From IMG/VR virus record IMGVR_UViG_3300029360_000019: DNA of 43,197 nt; one strand, 5' to 3'. Each line of letters begins with the position of its first letter. Position 1 is the stretch's first letter. Under the pieces are notes generated by a model. It had not been told where the DNA came from. It searched no databases and saw nothing but the letters and a program-made list of their open reading frames with translations. Source of the DNA: a virus. The position numbers were made by a program, and so were the translations under genes. Of this stretch, positions 1,023 to 29,271 are shown one piece after another.

Positions 1023-2879
1023 TTAGGCTGTTCGCCGCCAAGCATACACCGTCAGATATGGCGGCATATTGTTATGAGCCTTCCCGCCGCCGGTCGCACC
1101 GGTCGCCGTGTTGCGGCTGATGTCAAATGCCGCCGATGCGTAGGGATAGTACCGCCCGCTGCCGCTCTGAACGCCCATATCACCCACGGTGAACGCCTTC
1201 TGGCTGTTGGTGATAAAGCCGTAATACCCCGCCTGATTGGCCGGATTGTGCGTATGGCTCGGCATCTCATTTGCGGTCAGTGTATGCGCTGCTTCTCCGC
1301 CGCTGGCCCCGGCTGCGTATGTATCACCCGCAGCCAACAGGAATACATCCTTTATGCGTTCCCACGTCCCGCCGCCAAAAAGATCGACCGGGTCGGTGGC
1401 CGCAGTGGAGATATATACACTCCCCACCGGATGTGCATAATCCAGCAGCGTCGTCCCTCCTACCGCCAATGTTCCGTCTATCTGCACGTCCCTATCAAAA
1501 TAAGCATCCAGCCCCACTTGGATTGCATTTGCCTTGTCACAGAGACGGCCCAGCCCCACAGACAGCAGATGCTTTGCCAGATGGTAAAGGGCATACGCTG
1601 CCGGCAGATCTCTCAGAGAGGAACCTACACCCTCCCATGCATCCGTCGCCACCACACGCACCTCGTAGCGTTTGCTCTTGTCTGCAGCAAACACGGCAGA
1701 AATATCAGCAGGATCATAGTTTCCCGCCGCCGGTCGGCCTGCCGTAGTCCAATCTTCAGCGCCGACTTCCCTATACTGCACCGCATATGCTGCGGTGTTT
1801 TTAGCAGAAAGTGAAGTAATGGCCCCGGAGAAAGTCACCTTGCCATAAGTGCCAGCCCGGTTTGCTGTTCCATCGGCATTGCAACGGGCGGCAGAAATAG
1901 CAGTAATTGCTGGTTTGCTATAAGCGAGGACAGTGATACTTTGTGTCTTTGTAGTCGTGCGCCCTCGGCTATCCGTAACGGCGCAAGCAACAATCAGTTC
2001 GCCGGAACCGGGCAGATAATCCGTTGTACCACTGGCCGATGTCGCAGCGTAGATGCTGCCCACCTTGATACTGTAAGACTTGATGGAACTGCCCTGCACA
2101 CCGGATGCGGTGATATCCACTTTGACTTTGCTGCGAAGCTGGACATATCCACCATAGGTGTTGGACACACCTGTTGGATCATCGATTGCAACAGACAAGG
2201 ACGGAACCACGGTTGACGGCACGGCAAGCTTAACAGCCGTTGACCACGCCCCAACATAGGTGCTGCCGTTGTACGTCTTTACTGTGAGTGTGAGCGCCAC
2301 AGTCTCTGCGTTTGGTGCTTGCTGTGCCAGAGACACAGGCGGTGCGTTCCAACTGTACGATGTGCCTACATTTTCGGCAATCAGTTTGTCCTTGACGCTG
2401 CCGCAGGTGTAATAGAGTTTGTGCGTAAAGCTGCTGCTGGCCCGCTTGATGGTGATGGTCAAGGTTTTCCCCAGCGTGGAGCCGCTTGTGGTGGCCGTGG
2501 ACGCTCTTGGAATGGTGGTCAGCGTCACCGTTTCCGACAAGGACAAATGGCGTGGCGTGTAGGAGCTGTCAAAGCCACAGTCCCACTCTGCTGTCAACGC
2601 AATGCTTTTCGTGCCGTCTGCATTATGGCTGACTGTAATAGTCTTGCTGCCCAGTTTGTACCATCCGGTGGAACTGTAATTATACGGATTCCAGCGTTTT
2701 TCGCCCTGAAGTATATAATACGCTTCGCCGCTGCTCTCGTTCTGTGAATATCCGGTTCCGTCATATACCCACAAATCAAGACTTAATGTGCTTTTGTTGT
2801 CTGCGATAGACTGGCCTGTGATTGACCAATCCAGACGCAAGCGCCAGCCTTTGTTTGTGCTGCTGTAAATGGACGCCAT
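1023..2879 (-). CDS. Tail fibre / receptor-binding protein with tail-collar-type C-terminus
   Basis: Start set at ATG 2879 (AGGAG upstream; the upstream gene ends at 2894). C-terminal GEAAHTLTANEMPSHTH...GGGKAHNNMPPYL matches the phage tail-collar fibre motif. The N-terminus resembles DUF859-type siphovirus proteins. Confidence 0.8.
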   Translation of the reverse strand: MASIYSSTNKGWRLRLDWSITGQSIADNKSTLSLDLWVYDGTGYSQNESSGEAYYILQGEKRWNPYNYSSTGWYKLGSKTITVSHNADGTKSIALTAEWDCGFDSSYTPRHLSLSETVTLTTIPRASTATTSGSTLGKTLTITIKRASSSFTHKLYYTCGSVKDKLIAENVGTSYSWNAPPVSLAQQAPNAETVALTLTVKTYNGSTYVGAWSTAVKLAVPSTVVPSLSVAIDDPTGVSNTYGGYVQLRSKVKVDITASGVQGSSIKSYSIKVGSIYAATSASGTTDYLPGSGELIVACAVTDSRGRTTTKTQSITVLAYSKPAITAISAARCNADGTANRAGTYGKVTFSGAITSLSAKNTAAYAVQYREVGAEDWTTAGRPAAGNYDPADISAVFAADKSKRYEVRVVATDAWEGVGSSLRDLPAAYALYHLAKHLLSVGLGRLCDKANAIQVGLDAYFDRDVQIDGTLAVGGTTLLDYAHPVGSVYISTAATDPVDLFGGGTWERIKDVFLLAAGDTYAAGASGGEAAHTLTANEMPSHTHNPANQAGYYGFITNSQKAFTVGDMGVQSGSGRYYPYASAAFDISRNTATGATGGGKAHNNMPPYLTVYAWRRTA

Positions 2880-2893
2880 GTTCTCAACTCCTG

Positions 2894-5254
2894 TCAACTG
2901 GCAATTACATCGCCGTTTTCGTCCTCCGTCCAAACCACGTTTCCGATACAGAGGATAGATACCTTGATACGCATTGCTTCCACGCCCTCTGCGGTGATCT
3001 GCAACTCCGGTGTGTTGTTGCGGACAAACTGCAACACATCATTATCCAGCCGCAGCAGGATTTCATTGCCCGTTTCGCCAATGATTAGGCCGTCAGACGT
3101 AAACCGGAAAGCCTTTGTGATCTCGCTGTACTTGCTTTGCAGATCGCCGTCCACCTTGTCAATGCGCTCGGTTACCTTAGTGATGTCAATGCTCAGCTGG
3201 TCAGTCAGCACAGACAGCTTTGTGCTGACCTCCTCTTTGTAGCTGTCAAAATCCCCGGTTTCTACATAGTTTTCCAGAGCGGACAGGATGATGGAGTTGA
3301 CATTCTGCTGCAGATCGGTAATCTGCTGGTGTGTGGCCTGAATCAGCTGATCGATTTGGGGCTTGGCGCTCTCGGTCATGGCATTACTGATGCAGTATGC
3401 GCCGGTGTAGGCCGTTTGGCCGTCTGAATAGGTGATCTTCGTGCGGCTCCAAAGGTAGGTGCCGTCCGTGATGGTCGGGGCTGCAGGCTGCCATGTGCCG
3501 CCGGACAGCTCTGTCTCAGAGGTGGAGAGGTAATATTCCACCTCCGTGCTCGTCACAGAAACACCGTCATCGCCCTTGGTTCCGGGCTTGCCGTCCGCTC
3601 CTACAATGCGCACGGGCGTTCCCCATATACCGCTGCTGGCGGACGCTGCTACCTTCTGTGAGAGCCATACCACAGCATCGGTCAGGTCTGTGTGCCAGCC
3701 GTTCAGCGTACCGTCTCCTGTGGGCTTGGCCGGGGTAGTCGTGCCGTCATGGTAAGTAATCCATACAGACAGACCGTTGGTGCCATTGGTGCCGTCCTTG
3801 CCGTCTGCACCGGCAGGACCGGGAGGCCCGGGGGTAAGCTCGATATTTTCAAGGTCGGTTTTTGTGGCATATGTTTTCTGGGCTTCTGTCTTGCTGATGG
3901 TGGACTCAAATTTCTCGTCAATGGCTATGAGCTTTTGGGAGAGCCCGGAAACAGCGTCCTGCTTGACAGACCCTACAGCTAAGGCACCGCCATTTATAGT
4001 GCCGTCCATCGTCAAAGCCACATTGCTGATGGTCTTTCCGCCATCCTTAGAAAATCCCAGGCCACCGATAGACATAATCCACATTTTGGTATTATCTTCC
4101 ACGGTGGGGGTATTTCTCAGCGTCCAGCCAGTAGGATAGCCGTCTTTGTCATAAGTGATTTCAAAATAACCCCCCTGTGCCCCGATTATTTTCTGGGTAG
4201 CATCTTGAAACGACTTTACAACATCTTCATACATTCTTTTGAACTTCTGTTCCGATGGAGAAGGAGTAGCATAGTCTGTATCCGATGGGCCATAGCAAGT
4301 CAAGTCGGCGGACATTCCACCCTTGATTTGCGTTTTTAGCTCCATCACATAGGCCGTCAGATTCTCTCCGCTGCCGCCTGTAACAGAAATAATGTCTCCC
4401 GCTTCAACGGCTGGGTTTCCACGCCACTTAACGGTGCAAGGCCGCATTGTTTTGCCGTCAATCTTGGCAAAAACGGTTTCTGCTACCTCTGCGGTCATGT
4501 ATGGATTAATGGTGGTAATACCTTTTCCCGCTCCCACACTGATGGGGTTGCTATCCGTGCCAGTCAAGAGACTGTGAATCGTAAATGCATCATCAGCGGT
4601 CAGCGTCAAGCCATCCATGTACTGCGTGTCGCGGTCAATCGTAAGACCGCTATCGGCATACCAGCAAAAGACAAGGTTTCCTGTTGCGTCAAACTTTGCG
4701 TTACAACCGATAAGACCGGCCAGCCATCCGAGCTGTTGCCGCAGAGTGCCCGTATAAGGCGCAGCAATCTGAATACTCGGCATAGTAACAGCAGGCGGTG
4801 TTACGCTCGCCTGTTTACAGACATCTGCCAGCACCTGTGCCGGAGTAGCCGGGAATGTGATAGTGGGCATATAGTCCTCTGTCAGACCAGCCATACGGTC
4901 GTAGCCTGTGACAGTTACCCACAGCTTCCCGCTATCCTCTACGCCATCTGAGGGGATGTAGTATTTGCCCTTTTGAACATATTGGGCTTCACCGACCACC
5001 ATGATACCGGCAGAGGGGATAAAATACGCACCATTCAGCGGTAGATTGTCCTGCTTGTAGAATGTAACCTTGCAACTGGACGAAAACGCCGCGCCGATGG
5101 TCACGCCGTCTGAGGAGCCAAACTGCTCCGTGACAACGATCTCCTGTATCTCCGATGCTGGAAGGTCTGTCGTACCGTTGAAATTTACCTTGCTGGTGAT
5201 TTCACGCCCCGGTGCAGAACACGCGGCGTTAAATGCGTCTGTTACAGTATGCAT
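2894..5254 (-). CDS. Tail-associated (Tal-like) minor structural protein with collagen-like repeats
   Basis: 786 codons downstream of the tape measure. G-X-Y runs GPPGPAGADGKDGTNGTNG and GADGKPGTKGDDG. C-terminal coiled coil. Confidence 0.75.
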   Translation of the reverse strand: MHTVTDAFNAACSAPGREITSKVNFNGTTDLPASEIQEIVVTEQFGSSDGVTIGAAFSSSCKVTFYKQDNLPLNGAYFIPSAGIMVVGEAQYVQKGKYYIPSDGVEDSGKLWVTVTGYDRMAGLTEDYMPTITFPATPAQVLADVCKQASVTPPAVTMPSIQIAAPYTGTLRQQLGWLAGLIGCNAKFDATGNLVFCWYADSGLTIDRDTQYMDGLTLTADDAFTIHSLLTGTDSNPISVGAGKGITTINPYMTAEVAETVFAKIDGKTMRPCTVKWRGNPAVEAGDIISVTGGSGENLTAYVMELKTQIKGGMSADLTCYGPSDTDYATPSPSEQKFKRMYEDVVKSFQDATQKIIGAQGGYFEITYDKDGYPTGWTLRNTPTVEDNTKMWIMSIGGLGFSKDGGKTISNVALTMDGTINGGALAVGSVKQDAVSGLSQKLIAIDEKFESTISKTEAQKTYATKTDLENIELTPGPPGPAGADGKDGTNGTNGLSVWITYHDGTTTPAKPTGDGTLNGWHTDLTDAVVWLSQKVAASASSGIWGTPVRIVGADGKPGTKGDDGVSVTSTEVEYYLSTSETELSGGTWQPAAPTITDGTYLWSRTKITYSDGQTAYTGAYCISNAMTESAKPQIDQLIQATHQQITDLQQNVNSIILSALENYVETGDFDSYKEEVSTKLSVLTDQLSIDITKVTERIDKVDGDLQSKYSEITKAFRFTSDGLIIGETGNEILLRLDNDVLQFVRNNTPELQITAEGVEAMRIKVSILCIGNVVWTEDENGDVIAS

Positions 5255-27090: not shown

Positions 27091-27588
27091 TCATTCCTCC
27101 ATAAGTTTCATAAAACATCCCCAAAATGTCTGTGACTTCTTTCCGCTATGATGCCCGAAAAGCGGGCGTTCTCCGATTGCCGCCCAAACATCTGCAGCGG
27201 GGATTTGCGTTTCTGCCCACTTAAAAATCAGCACGCCGTCCGGTTTTAATACGCGCATACACTCGCGGAATCCGTCATGCAGCATTTCGCGCCAGTTCTC
27301 GCCGAGCTGTCCGTACTTCTTCCGCATCCAAGAGTTTTCCCCGACGCGGCGAAGGTGCGGTGGATCAAAAACGACAAGAGAAAATGTGTTGTCCAAAAAC
27401 GGAAGATCCGTAAAATCACACTGTATGTCTGGGTGCACGACGCAGGTTCGTTCAGAATCGCGGTTTGTGTTCTTCCAAATCCCCGTATATTCCTCGTCCC
27501 GCGCATCGCAGTAGATTGCGGCAGGATGGTTTTTGTTAAACCATATCGTCCGAGATCCGCAGGTGGCATCAAGAATTTTCTTTGTCAT
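27091..27588 (-). CDS. Small SAM-dependent methyltransferase (DPPH motif; amino-methyltransferase type)
   Basis: Start ATG 27588 behind GGGGAGGAA. LDATCGS (motif I-like) then VVFDPPH (motif IV-like). Confidence 0.7.
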   Translation of the reverse strand: MTKKILDATCGSRTIWFNKNHPAAIYCDARDEEYTGIWKNTNRDSERTCVVHPDIQCDFTDLPFLDNTFSLVVFDPPHLRRVGENSWMRKKYGQLGENWREMLHDGFRECMRVLKPDGVLIFKWAETQIPAADVWAAIGERPLFGHHSGKKSQTFWGCFMKLMEE

Positions 27589-27589
27589 G

Positions 27590-28660
27590 TCATTCCTCCC
27601 CAAACCATTTTTTCGTCACGGCAATGGGAAACTCTTCGATCTCGCTTGCCCAGCGCGCCGTACCCTTGCCGTTGTGCCGCTCAAACACCAGCGGAAAGCC
27701 GCCGATGCCATCAAACAGGCTGCCCATCGTAACAGGGCGAAGATATTGTGCGCTGATCCGCTTTGCCAAAAAGTCCCAGAAGGGCAATGCGATGGAGTTG
27801 CCCAGCGCCTTATACCGGGGGCTGTCCGCATCCTTGTGGCGCTTGCCTTTGCTGTCCATCCACTCGCCAATGTCTGTCCAGCCGTTCGGGTAGCCCTGCA
27901 GCCGTTCGCACTCCATCGGGGTCAGGCGGCGCACCACCATGTTCTGCACGGGGTATGTCTCCGCGTCTTCCCGGTATGCGCAGGCAGCCTTTGCCCGCAG
28001 TGCGTGTGCCACCTCCGGTGTTGCCCCGCACACCAGCATATCGTTATAAGCATCCTGCCCGTTATAGCTCCCAGCATGGGCACCGGGAGAAAGCGTTCCC
28101 GTTACGGTTTGATACGTCAGCGGCACTTGATTGCCGCCTGTTCCCATACGGGCTTGCAAACTCGGAGCGATCTCTCCGCAGTCCCGAATGACATCGCAAG
28201 CGTGCGACATATCCAGCGCCACAAACGTCTGGCAGTGCATACCGACCTCCGCAGCAAGCGCCACTGCCTTATCCCCCACGTTGCGAACCTCTTCGCGCTG
28301 ATTTTGCGCAAAAGCGATGACCGCTGGCTGGTGTCCATGCTTCTGTGCTCTCAGCGTGCCGGAAACATCATGGCTCACGCCCATCACATTCCCGCCTTGA
28401 TCGTTCAGGCACATCACCGCCGGTTTATTCCACCCACACTCTGCGTTCAACGTGGGCGATTGCTCTTCGGCGTATCCGATGCTCCGGGCCTGTTCGCTGT
28501 TCCCCAGCTTAAACCCGGCGCAAACCGCCGGTCGGTCGATGCCGTTTCCCTGCAAGCATGAAATCGTCTGGTCGTTGCCGGTGCCCAGCGTCCCGCTCTT
28601 GTCCTCCTGCACTAAAGTGCCTTTTCCTCCTCCGTCACAGACTCCTGACCCGGACTGCAT
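27590..28660 (-). CDS. Cytosine-5 DNA methyltransferase, distal part: TRD, motifs IX and X, then motifs I and II at the C-terminus
   Basis: RRLTPMECERLQGYP (IX), YKALGNSIALP (X), GSLFDGIGGF (I), WASEIEEFP (II). The frame is open upstream to 29074, but that stretch overlaps the other part in the +1 frame. ATG 28660 is the first in-frame ATG near the junction. Confidence 0.7.
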   Translation of the reverse strand: MQSGSGVCDGGGKGTLVQEDKSGTLGTGNDQTISCLQGNGIDRPAVCAGFKLGNSEQARSIGYAEEQSPTLNAECGWNKPAVMCLNDQGGNVMGVSHDVSGTLRAQKHGHQPAVIAFAQNQREEVRNVGDKAVALAAEVGMHCQTFVALDMSHACDVIRDCGEIAPSLQARMGTGGNQVPLTYQTVTGTLSPGAHAGSYNGQDAYNDMLVCGATPEVAHALRAKAACAYREDAETYPVQNMVVRRLTPMECERLQGYPNGWTDIGEWMDSKGKRHKDADSPRYKALGNSIALPFWDFLAKRISAQYLRPVTMGSLFDGIGGFPLVFERHNGKGTARWASEIEEFPIAVTKKWFGEE

Positions 28661-29252
28661 AAGAAGCACCGCTTTCAGCGTTTCCGGCAAGTCTTTCCCA
28701 CGCCGTTCCGCTCTCCGCAGGATGCCTTGACACGCTTTTGCGCTCAAAGAGTATTTCTCCTGCGGTGTCGCCTCCAAAATCTGCGACAACCGAGATCCGA
28801 CGGCGGCGTTGGGGGACTCCCCAGTATTGCGCGTCATGCACTCGCCAAGCCACGCTCCATCGTCCTCCCACTTCATCGTGGTAGCCACCCCAAGTTGGCC
28901 ATCCTTTTTCAGGTACTTCAATATCGGGGGCTTCCGGCTCTGCGATGCGGATGATCTCTTCAAGGACTGCCGCGAAGTCTCGCCCTTTGTTGCTGCTGAA
29001 TGCTCCGGGCACATTTTCCCAGACCATAAACCGAGGTCGGACCATGTCACCTGTCCGTCCGCTCTTTCTGTCACGCTCTCTCATCTCCTTTACGATGCGG
29101 ATATGCTCCATGAACAATCCGCTCCTTGCACCGGCCAATCCGGCTCGTTTTCCTGCAATGCTCAAATCCTGACACGGCGATCCGCCCGTGATAACATCCA
29201 CGGCTTCGATCTCTGCACCGTTGATTTTCGTAATATCGCCGAGGTGCTTCAT
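28635..29252 (-). CDS. Cytosine-5 DNA methyltransferase, proximal part: motifs III to VIII only
   Basis: MKHLGDI (III), GGSPCQDLSIAG (IV), ENVPG (VI), QYWGVPQRRRR (VIII). GGAGGAACGGAG RBS. No motif I upstream. Confidence 0.8.
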   Translation of the reverse strand: MKHLGDITKINGAEIEAVDVITGGSPCQDLSIAGKRAGLAGARSGLFMEHIRIVKEMRERDRKSGRTGDMVRPRFMVWENVPGAFSSNKGRDFAAVLEEIIRIAEPEAPDIEVPEKGWPTWGGYHDEVGGRWSVAWRVHDAQYWGVPQRRRRISVVADFGGDTAGEILFERKSVSRHPAESGTAWERLAGNAESGASYAVRVRSL

Positions 29253-29271
29253 CTCCGTTCCTCCCGTTTTG

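Follow-up and report, generated by a model that had tools for sequence, protein, structure and literature searches.

Departures from the canonical order of motifs in cytosine-5 DNA methyltransferases (C5-MTases) were classified by Slaska-Kiss et al. in 2018, and in their scheme a permutation with its breakpoint between motifs II and III is designated 'Type B' (PMC5944983). Of the engineered forms of M.MpeI and M.SssI, the II|III permutants were the most active and came close to the wild type, and a Type B permutant re-split between motif VIII and the target-recognition region (TRD), Mpe[62-279] + Mpe[280-61], was partially active; equivalent M.SssI fragment pairs were inactive or very weakly active (PMC5944983). 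The REBASE survey of 2018 found no natural II|III permutant, only the variable-region type (PMC5944983), and in the literature we searched no natural Type B permutant has appeared after 2018. Two-polypeptide C5-MTases are also known: M.AquI alpha/beta is split in the variable region after motif VIII (PMC3404938), and M.EcoHK31I requires a second polypeptide, beta, that is encoded within alpha in another frame (PMC2836561).

Here we describe a locus on a 43,197-nucleotide virus stretch from IMG/VR (the window) which, from its gene layout and motif content, on balance probably encodes a phage orphan-type DNA cytosine-5 methyltransferase that is permuted, distributed over two overlapping ORFs and active as a two-chain enzyme. 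The two ORFs lie where the preliminary description of this DNA had placed them, both on the minus strand and with ORF B in the +1 frame, and ORF B runs in the order nested-ORF region, TRD modules, IX, X, linker, I, II. The features are as follows.

29260..29265 (-): Shine-Dalgarno-like GGGAGG, 7 nt 5' of the ORF A ATG 29252, as read from the sequence
28635..29252 (-): ORF A, 205 aa, putative chain A, with motifs III, IV, VI and VIII and a poorly conserved tail
29232-29246 (-): motif III, ORF A
29160-29186 (-): motif IV (GGSPCQDLS) with the catalytic Cys, ORF A
28998-29024 (-): motif VI (VWENVPG), ORF A
28776-28820 (-): motif VIII (QRRRR), ORF A
28635-28637 (-): ORF A stop codon, TGA
29085..29090 (-): AAGGAG, candidate RBS of the nested ORF and ORF B, 10 nt 5' of GTG 29074
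27590..29074 (-): ORF B, 494 aa, +1 frame relative to ORF A, putative chain B
28635..29074 (-): dual-coding overlap of ORF A and ORF B, 440 nt
28655..28852 (-): conserved core of the nested +1 ORF (WLGEC...SRLSQILEATPQEKYSLSAKACQGILRRAERRGKDLPETLKAVLLMQ)
28640..28646 (-): frame junction AGGAGTC, the G-run site in relatives
27932..28639 (-): variable region with target-recognition modules (CDGGGKGTLVQ..., LNDQGGNVMGVSHDVSGTLRAQ..., etc.)
27782..27931 (-): motifs IX and X together, PF00145 profile positions 255-323
27887-27931 (-): motif IX (RRLTPMECERLQGYP), ORF B
27782-27808 (-): motif X (ALGNSIALP), ORF B
27725..27781 (-): X-to-I linker (FWDFLAKRISAQYLRPVT-M), apparently the old C-terminal tail and old initiator Met
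27593..27724 (-): motif I and II segment, chain end ...KKWFGEE, where unpermuted relatives continue with KHLGD
27689-27724 (-): motif I (GSLFDGIGGFPL), ORF B
27629-27652 (-): motif II (WASEIEEF), ORF B

Against Pfam PF00145, ORF A covers profile positions 46-130 (E 8.9e-26), residues 361-441 of ORF B cover positions 255-323 (E 2.7e-9), and the last 45 codons of ORF B, taken alone, cover positions 4-37 (E 0.0037). When the ORF B tail was artificially put ahead of ORF A the result was one contiguous PF00145 match (positions 5-130) with the score rising from 91.5 to 116.8 bits, and this de-permuted construct aligned unbroken with M.HhaI residues 16-113 (E 6e-12), the ORF B motifs I and II (GSLFDGIGG...SEIEEF) pairing with M.HhaI F18-G23 and E40. 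ORF A possesses the Pro-Cys nucleophile of motif IV, the ENV of motif VI and the QxRxR of motif VIII that are expected of a C5-MTase, and ORF B likewise carries motifs IX and X after a variable TRD; the canonical I-to-X order on one polypeptide is absent, and the motifs instead run III...X-I-II over the two ORFs. These alignments confirm the circular permutation of a C5 methyltransferase at II|III, and they agree with the preliminary description, which had taken both ORFs for parts of such an enzyme and the GSLFDGIGG segment for its motif I. The breakpoint corresponds to 'NFGEK|PEGDIT' of HhaI, between motifs II and III, and joining ...KKWFGEE* to MKHLGDI spans it with no residues lost or duplicated relative to HhaI and unpermuted relatives. 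In those relatives the same junction reads ...FPIRVTTKRMPEV-KHLGDV (Javan105; TKRMPEV-KHLGDV) or ...RFPN-MKHVGDI (L179), in line with the KKWFGEE/MKHLGDI junction of the preliminary description.

The Type H enzymes (M.BssHII, M.Alw26I, M2.Eco31I, M.Esp3I and M2.BsaI) are likewise natural permutations of the C5 fold in which motifs I-VIII do not come first. However, their breakpoint lies in the variable region and gives the order IX-X-I...VIII, whereas that of ORF A/B is II|III: the N-terminus, MKHLGDI, is motif III, and although IX-X precede I, motifs III-VIII come first. The proposed distinction from M.BssHII, with its permutation point in the variable region (PMC5944983), is upheld. The ...AQYLRPVT-M-GSLFDGIGG junction between motifs X and I retains an apparent old initiator Met, and the new N-terminus uses a Met that some unpermuted relatives (L179, Oscillospirales phage) already have before KH(L/V)GD. 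Together the retained X-I Met and the pre-existing Met fit the tandem-duplication/truncation origin first put forward for this gene, each being compatible with it, and the most likely source of the permuted family is a pair of gene copies that fused head to tail and were then trimmed. A linearisation artefact was also considered as the cause of the permutation and was ruled out by the ordinary neighbour genes on both flanks. An AlphaFold2 model of the single-chain permuted relative P0040 with 53 homologues, which addressed whether C-terminal motifs I-II sit in the Rossmann fold, reached a pLDDT of only 27.

The permutation is not confined to this phage but defines a large family made up mainly of intact single ORFs. 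The same rotated order occurs in at least 120 protein clusters as single-ORF proteins of 500-650 aa and on 502 IMG/VR stretches, and prophage copies of the permuted gene are present in Oscillospiraceae, Lachnospiraceae and Faecalibacterium genomes. The gene is thus a member of a large, naturally permuted family with the order III-IV-VI-VIII-TRD-IX-X-I-II, throughout which the II|III breakpoint recurs. All motifs stand in one frame at about 66 of 84 IMG/VR loci, and single-chain genes are found at 43 of 61 GTDB loci; that most close relatives are single-chain is an observation which counts against a two-chain reading. Compared with the engineered Type B enzymes, which were man-made from CG-specific mycoplasma/spiroplasma methyltransferases, this family shares the II|III N-terminus and the placement of I-II after X, but it is natural and common among phages and prophages, its large modular TRDs are shuffled between relatives, and in its two-ORF form an extra overprinted region heads the second chain. 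If our reading is true it would be the first natural II|III ('Type B') permutation of a C5-MTase, none having been reported in the literature searched; Type B is the topology that protein engineers found best tolerated, and here it bears a duplication-fusion signature.

The N-terminal part of ORF B had been read as 'TRD-like segments'; it proved instead to be a separate conserved element. Codons 1-146 of ORF B form a +1 ORF nested within ORF A with its own start (GTG 29074) and SD, so that in the overlap 28635..29074 frame 0 specifies motifs VI-VIII and the tail and frame +1 specifies the nested ORF, with peptides including LSQILEATPQEK and ACQGILR. A tblastn search with the nested ORF matched 135 phage records, and its conservation extends to P1 dmt and to phages of Vibrio, Mycobacterium and Streptococcus; in 6 of 6 intact genes checked the match lay in the +1 frame of an annotated C5-MTase CDS. 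Similarity in the +1 frame exceeded all 100 synonymous shuffles in 21 of 21 pairs from 7 distant genes (z 4.1-11.2), and mean identity of the core among 9 distant phage genes was 0.61 when read in the +1 frame, against 0.34 for the annotated frame. Moreover, after motif VIII pN/pS was 0.38 in the +1 frame versus 1.16 in the annotated frame, which makes the +1 frame the selected one in this region. We thereby show that the +1 frame is under selection and constitutes a separate, previously unrecognised coding element. Chance openness of a frame in GC-rich DNA was considered as well, and is ruled out by the pN/pS values, the synonymous shuffles and the frame identities.

This element was found in 4400 clusters (50% identity), with the consensus LSQILE..KY.LS.KAC.GILRRA..RGK.LP. 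Of 112 unique relatives, 103 have an SD-like element and 109 a start codon, ATG or GTG, positioned 8-24 (mostly 13-19) codons 5' of the ENV motif. In the window the AAGGAG at 29085..29090 is made by the main-frame K-E codons of a conserved 'KEMRE'; that the SD is dictated by main-frame codons, and that its spacing of 10 nt from the start is long, are points against a two-chain reading. Helices are predicted at ORF B residues 95-99, 112-125 and 131-142, and AlphaFold2 of the nested ORF gave pLDDT 72-88 over the core, with a disordered N-terminal stretch of 90 residues and moderate confidence only for the C-terminal three-helix part. The nested ORF found no family in Pfam or NCBIfam, and in PHROGs only a weak match to phrog_16143 (E 7e-6); its profile returned nothing below E = 1 against PDB sequences, and hhalign against the enzyme itself gave a probability of 0.3%, with no detectable similarity to any part including motif IX. 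This lack of detectable similarity to solved structures or enzyme parts is a further observation against a two-chain reading. At 0.3%, hhalign also leaves unsupported a reading of the element as a displaced helix, motif-IX-like or canonical post-VIII. Nothing relevant to an overlapping gene in phage cytosine methyltransferases turned up in the literature searched. In independent lineages in-frame fusions, with many different junctions, join the element to TRD-IX-X(-I-II), and in other lineages it is always kept as the N-terminus of ORF-B-type proteins.

The conserved nested ORF with its start GTG 29074 and AAGGAG was overlooked in the earlier statement that the two halves could be joined 'only' by a +1 shift or made separately from ATG 28660. 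Initiation of chain B at ATG 28660 (MQSGSGVCDGGG...), with the upstream 138 ORF B codons untranslated, is very improbable in our view: an in-frame ATG does exist there and VIII/TRD splits complement in other C5-MTases, but no SD precedes it, and such a start would discard the best-conserved +1-frame element, the one that is always N-terminal in ORF-B-type proteins of other lineages. Joining by a programmed +1 ribosomal frameshift at CUG-UGA-C (28635-28640), with AGGAG 1 nt upstream, would yield a single III...X-I-II chain in the manner of prfB. The RF2 (prfB) frameshift site is AGGGGG UAU CUU UGA C, and the window sequence GUC AGG AGU CUG UGA C resembles it in having an SD-like element, a Leu codon, and UGA then C. 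However, the tRNA-Leu on CUG is unable to re-pair with the +1 codon UGU, and the SD spacing is 1 nt rather than the 3 nt of prfB, so that of the prfB-like features only UGA-C and AGGAG are present. The configuration is moreover limited to one lineage, the same protein is made shift-free in relatives, and a shift at the stop would omit the conserved +1 element and leave its conservation unexplained; we regard this route as improbable.

Comparison with single-ORF homologues maps the frame change to 28640-28646, inside the interval of about 28640-28665 suggested before. Relatives with AGGGGGGGC (G7) at this junction have one chain and those with G8 have two ORFs; G7 runs occur at two in-gene positions among them, and G6 and G8 length variants change the frame. 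At this site the window reads AGGAGTC: the phase is that of G8, but the run itself is gone (the longest G-run in the gene is 5). Substitutions and an in-frame loss of 3 nt have remodelled it, and the two-ORF phase was retained throughout. This suggests a locked two-chain allele, in the G8 phase and with the run mutated away. A sequencing or assembly artefact, i.e. a homopolymer miscall of 1-2 nt, could be suspected from the G7 run that relatives have at the site, but is hardly credible: the window has no homopolymer there, and assemblies from several runs gave an identical allele on 7 + 1 contigs. Seven contigs carry an exact copy of the 494-aa ORF B, and the frame split recurs on them; an exact copy of ORF A lies on a 177-kb contig. 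The frame break is thus no isolated error. The relatives share frame-changing G-run length variants with phase-variable methyltransferases; however, one shifted phase here gives an ordered two-ORF layout and not simple truncation, and the window is without runs, so no homopolymer tract sets its frame.

The junction is nevertheless a hot spot for frameshifts, and some other alleles are clearly broken, both of which speak against a two-chain reading. Frame-broken alleles occur at the same G-runs (L001 with G6, L043, FP_Toutatis gp14-type), and at about 13 GTDB loci neither frame is open as far as motif IX. Reassignment of the stop codon (TAG = Gln) was ruled out as a remedy for the TAGA variants, whose frame stays wrong even then. 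Given the hot-spot junction and the broken alleles, the window allele could be a decaying or OFF variant. It would then be inactive, a G7 to G8 slippage having broken a single-chain gene whose run was later lost, with ORFs A and B as non-functional remnants and ORF B owing its length only to the chance that the nested +1 ORF is open that far. We consider this unlikely, though a serious alternative: besides the broken alleles it draws on the majority of single-chain genes at the IMG/VR and GTDB loci and on the M.SssI split-permutant pairs, whose inactivity or near inactivity likewise counts against a two-chain reading. Against it, every catalytic and binding motif is intact across both ORFs, the same allele persists on 7 + 1 contigs, the two-ORF phase survived remodelling of the run, the +1 frame is under purifying selection, and the architecture recurs with unrelated junctions in diverged lineages. 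Independent two-ORF loci of this kind are L095, L098, L100 and L102, and L179 is a canonical-order alpha/beta pair with TRD-like modules specifically in its beta frame.

In the two-chain reading that we prefer, chain A (III-VIII) would be translated from ATG 29252 and chain B from the nested start GTG 29074 with AAGGAG upstream. Chain B would then consist of a disordered N-terminal stretch overprinted on VI-VIII, a three-helix element, the TRD, IX, X and the AdoMet-binding motifs I-II, and the two chains may associate non-covalently to form an active, DNA-methylating enzyme. Such assembly we infer by analogy with M.AquI, with M.EcoHK31I alpha/beta and with Mpe[62-279] + Mpe[280-61], whose partition is that of ORF A/ORF B. 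The choice between the one-chain and the two-chain state would hinge on one G in the junction homopolymer, G7 giving one and G8 two. More broadly, it is quite conceivable, if just short of probable, that the nested +1 frame is translated and its helical element functional in many phage C5-MTases including P1 dmt, either as the N-terminus of the TRD-IX-X chain or as a small trans-acting subunit, that G7 slippage toggles one- and two-chain forms in the gut-phage branch, and that the window is a two-chain Type B enzyme.

If this is true, the same stretch of DNA can yield either a one-chain or a two-chain enzyme, and the natural split points could inform the design of split methyltransferases for targeted methylation. 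The nested frame, extending from phages of gut Clostridia to P1, Vibrio phages and mycobacteriophages, would then be a widespread overlooked coding sequence within a textbook family, and a second product may have gone unnoticed in functional work on orphan phage methyltransferases, Dmt of P1 among them; annotation pipelines miss the nested frame or label such genes 'frameshifted'. Cultured test systems are P1, Faecalibacterium phage FP_Toutatis and Faecalibacterium tardum CLA-AA-H175.

Similar to M.AquI, the ORF pair is divided after motif VIII; however, M.AquI alpha carries I-VIII, whereas here I-II are on the TRD/IX/X chain, and neither a 440-nt overlap nor a conserved overprinted N-terminal region is described for M.AquI. 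With M.EcoHK31I the locus shares a second coding frame inside the methyltransferase gene (PMC2836561), codons 1-146 of ORF B lying within ORF A in the +1 frame and under selection. In M.EcoHK31I, a single system, beta supplies motif IX; the nested ORF, which thousands of genes contain, is a different element that overlaps VI-VIII and the post-VIII linker, and motif IX lies downstream, outside the overlap. The N-terminal residues of M.EcoHK31I beta are partly dispensable (PMC2836561), which parallels the disordered N-terminus of the nested ORF.

The cytosine-5 methyltransferase (C5-MTase) of this locus is divided between two overlapping ORFs:

29252..28635, minus strand: ORF A, 205 aa (MKHLGDI...GGSPCQDLS...VWENVPG...QRRRRISVVADF), motifs III, IV, VI and VIII
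29074..27590, minus strand: ORF B, 494 aa, +1 frame relative to ORF A with a 440-nt overlap; TRD, motifs IX, X, I and II

ORF A starts 19 nt past a DnaC/IstB-like gene and is preceded by GGGAGG. When both ORFs were aligned to the Pfam profile PF00145, ORF A matched positions 46-130 (E 8.9e-26) and ORF B residues 361-441 matched positions 255-323 (E 2.7e-9), while the C-terminal 45 residues of ORF B (MGSLFDGIGG...SEIEEF...KKWFGEE) alone matched the profile start, positions 4-37 (E 0.0037). Placing these 45 residues artificially ahead of ORF A gave a single unbroken match to positions 5-130, with the score rising from 91.5 to 116.8 bits, and this de-permuted construct gave one continuous alignment with M.HhaI (residues 16-113, E 6e-12), in which the ends of the two natural ORFs map to 'NFGEK|PEGDIT'. 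Because these alignments place the ends between motifs II and III, the permuted, frame-split C5-MTase of the preliminary description proves right in all details, and the junction it gave, KKWFGEE just before MKHLGDI, is matched by unpermuted relatives, which read ...FPIRVTTKRMPEV-KHLGDV and ...RFPN-MKHVGDI across the junction. The end of ORF B is overlapped by 14 nt by a small second SAM-dependent methyltransferase gene (27091-27603, minus strand; 170 aa) with a DPPH motif, which matches Methyltransf_11 (E 1.9e-6) and, weakly, N6_N4_Mtase; in the relative L001 this place is taken by an unrelated gene with nothing in common beyond its initial residues (MGRxDMT).

In the work of Slaska-Kiss et al. 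on engineered M.MpeI and M.SssI permutants (PMC5944983), those with a new N-terminus between II and III (Type B) are by far the most active, near wild type, and split permutants of M.SssI are very weak or inactive. Given the breakpoint match with these Type B enzymes, the window enzyme is, judged from its sequence, a Type B permutant of natural origin, with its second cut placed as in the engineered split permutants; our literature search for a natural Type B permutant after Slaska-Kiss et al. found no later report, which does not prove absence. There are two natural precedents for the two-chain layout: M.AquI, whose chains are split within the variable region (PMC3404938), and M.EcoHK31I, whose beta chain has its coding sequence nested within alpha in a different frame (PMC2836561). 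The locus is a variant of permuted, split and nested-subunit C5-MTases, each kind known already.

The order III...X-I-II characterizes a whole family and also occurs in a single unbroken 590-aa ORF of the GenBank gut-virome contig MT835513 (L002). Searching protein sequences with this ORF yielded at least 120 clusters (90% identity) of 500-650 aa at 99% query coverage, whose inspected members begin MKHLGDI and finish ...RPVTMGSLFDGIGG...FG(E/G)E; a few such proteins already have database entries under the name 'Cytosine specific methyltransferase [Caudoviricetes sp.]'. In IMG/VR there are 502 matching stretches, and a motif-by-motif scan of its loci found all motifs in one frame in about 66 of 84. 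Genomes and MAGs with copies are for the most part assigned to Oscillospiraceae, Lachnospiraceae, Faecalibacterium and Christensenellales, and the permuted order is shared by FP_Toutatis, a Faecalibacterium phage in culture. At the X-to-I joint (...AKRISAQYLRPVT-M-GSLFDG) a former C-terminal tail seems to be joined to a former initiator Met, and the Met of MKHLGDI is already present in some unpermuted relatives (L179 and an Oscillospirales phage); since both fit the expected remnants, tandem duplication followed by trimming is a plausible origin.

The 146 ORF B codons that overlap ORF A are no accidental open frame. By tblastn their translation matched 135 phage records, including P1 dmt and Salmonella SJ46, Vibrio, Pseudomonas, Streptococcus and Mycobacterium phages, and in 6/6 intact genes examined (P1, Javan105, Beem, zjk6, an Oscillospirales phage and Vibrio phage 24) the match lies in the +1 frame of an annotated canonical-order C5-MTase CDS. 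Synonymous shuffles, substitution rates and distant-gene identity all show selection on that frame, not a shadow of main-frame conservation. When synonymous codons were permuted inside each of seven genes (40-61% GC), the observed +1-frame alignment score exceeded 100/100 shuffles in 21/21 pairs (z 4.1-11.2). Among 54 unique gut-phage sequences, pN/pS over motifs III-IV behaves as in ordinary coding DNA (main frame 0.16, +1 frame 1.72), whereas the relation is inverted over the 48 codons past motif VIII (1.16 versus 0.38), and synonymous differences fall from 0.32-0.41 (codons 1-50) to 0.02-0.15 (codons 100-200). Moreover, over the 44 codons past QRRRR nine distant genes have an identity of 0.34 in the annotated frame versus 0.61 in the +1 frame, with the common pattern (I/L)LSQ(I/V)LE...P.KY(Y/F)LS.KAC.GILRRA..RGK.LP..L..AL. 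In 109 of 112 unique sequences the upstream +1-frame stop is followed, after no more than a few codons, by an ATG or GTG that precedes the ENV motif by 8-24 codons (mostly 13-19); the SD-like element upstream of it (103/112) is AAGGAG, which arises from the K and E codons of 'KEMRE' in the main frame and so is no independent evidence. AlphaFold2 predicts the N-terminal 90 residues to be disordered, followed by helices at 95-99, 112-125 and 131-142 (pLDDT 72-88 over the conserved part), and the element showed no resemblance to Pfam or NCBIfam models, to PDB sequences or to any part of the enzyme.

In single-chain genes, P1 dmt included, the nested frame shuts 10-20 codons past the conserved element, but this frame is conserved all the same. 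By analogy with EcoHK31I beta its product may act in trans there; alternatively, slippage at a G-run may join it to the TRD frame. The locus points to a far broader unannotated coding frame within C5-MTase genes. Such an unannotated +1 ORF of 135-165 codons lies over motifs VI-VIII in the canonical-order genes of P1, L086, L087, L089, L090 and L091, that of P1 dmt (MH445380.1, 2414-2911) reading ...MPNTSEWHNDADACLLSQVLEQTSIPQRYFLSSKACAGILRRAEARGRKLPDILQ. In Mycobacterium phage Thibault (L088, 341-2142) an HNH endonuclease gene (gp103) interrupts the C5-MTase gene, and gp104, annotated 'hypothetical protein', is the nested element (...LSSILETPGEHLRKYFLSAKACQGILRRAAKRGRKLPEPLEQAL).

Single-chain relatives read ...SYAVRIRGGCDGGGKG... 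across the frame junction, with the DNA AGG GGG GGC TGT (a G7 run; 28-31 loci), whereas in the window and in three contigs with the exact allele the sequence at 28640-28646 is AGGAGTC, two bases shorter, so that the downstream part is in the +1 frame and TGA (28635-28637) is in frame A. The preliminary description had located the frame change correctly, as it had the permutation, which recurs in single-ORF relatives, but its relation of the halves was incomplete, the conserved nested frame having been missed. A prfB-like +1 frameshift at CUG-UGA-C, suggestive on paper through an upstream AGGAG, is very improbable, as re-pairing and spacing both fail and the nested element would be bypassed; initiation of chain B at ATG 28660, which is without an SD and would likewise throw the element away, is at least as improbable.

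In G8 alleles (L098, L103, P0241) the A chain ends ...RIRGGL* and the B-chain junction reads ...SGSGGGCDGGG. Since AGGAGTC (7 nt) shares the phase of G8 (10 nt), the window seems to carry a two-ORF allele of the G8 type that lost its run afterwards but preserved the phase. In the G6 allele L001 neither frame reaches the TRD; a 70-nt TRD-module insertion restores the frame of G6 in L016, L042 and L044, and L059 has a different 8-nt tract. G7 is the commonest allele among relatives L001-L083 and L097-L176 at the junction (AGGGGGGGC, R-G-G) and also at a second run, TGG GGG GGN (TGGGGGGGN, W-G-G ahead of YHDE; window 28890-28898), which is interrupted in the window; both are lost from its gene, where the longest G-run is 5. 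G6, G8 and G9 variants at these two runs shift the frame, a pattern typical of contingency loci. The main rival, that the window allele is simply dead, is a possibility of real but lesser weight: most genes are single-chain, G-runs yield plainly broken alleles (neither frame is open in about 13/61 GTDB loci), and split permutants of M.SssI are nearly inactive. An assembly error is very unlikely as the cause of the split, because the exact ORF B protein recurs on 7 contigs and exact ORF A on one 177-kb contig. In L178 (DRR595546 contig, 59-2370) the enzyme spans four consecutive ORFs (III-VIII; nested element and TRD part; TRD part; IX-X-I-II), a state due to decay or assembly errors, the contig being unpolished.

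We lean towards two chains that would be translated from ATG 29252 (III-VIII) and GTG 29074, the latter running from the overprinted disordered stretch through the conserved helical element, TRD, IX, X and AdoMet loop I to motif II, and that would associate into an active enzyme. Two-ORF layouts recur in other lineages. The diverged 1.6-kb contig L095 has III-VIII in ORF 1 and element, TRD, IX, X, I and II in a +1 ORF 2; L098, L100 and L102 (the cultured isolate Faecalibacterium tardum CLA-AA-H175) are similar with differing junctions, and L103 has a second ORF of the ORF B type, with motifs III and I not detected there. In an exhaustive profile search, 4400 clusters contained the element (50% identity; 2843 at E <= 1e-10). 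Among the best 150 of these about 21 proceed in frame through TRD modules to IX, X and I, as ORF B does, 4 run on into IX-X only, 15 have IV or VI in frame ahead of the element, as in FP_Toutatis gp14, and the remainder are short or incomplete; element-TRD junctions are highly diverse. The contig L179 (ERZ925104, 72-1815) carries a canonical-order pair, alpha I-VIII (337 aa) and beta element-TRD-IX-X (+1, 470 aa), overlapping by about 680 nt. Two extra TRD-like modules (MPCLRARERGGG..., MPCLKARDRGNG...) are encoded in its beta frame, over a stretch between IV and VI that the alpha frame translates as a low-complexity loop; they are hard to explain unless translation of beta begins upstream of the ENV motif.

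The FP_Toutatis gene (L085, NC_047915.1, 2309-3720) shows the permuted gene in another frame state and offers a usable experimental system: annotated gp14 (201 aa) is III-IV-VI joined in frame to the nested element, and an overlapping 342-aa ORF (2692-3720; VIII...X-I-II) is annotated in part, as gp15 from 2956. Another variant, absent from the window, is a 4-nt insertion after the motif IV catalytic Cys codon, TGT-TAG(A/C)-CAG, in 16/84 relatives of two diverged sublineages (near position 3070 in each of L003, L006, L008, L012, L015, L038, L043, L053, L056, L057, L060, L061, L062, L064, L079 and L080), which puts TAG in frame and moves the remainder of the gene to +1. It may serve as a recoding site, with a +1 frameshift at UGU-UAG-A, or may lead to a Cys-less protein from an internal GTG. 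Purifying selection acts on both sides (pN/pS 0.35 upstream, 0.14-0.34 downstream), and in 13 of these 16 relatives the +1 ORF has 540-690 codons without a stop, extending through motifs I-II in 10 of those 13.
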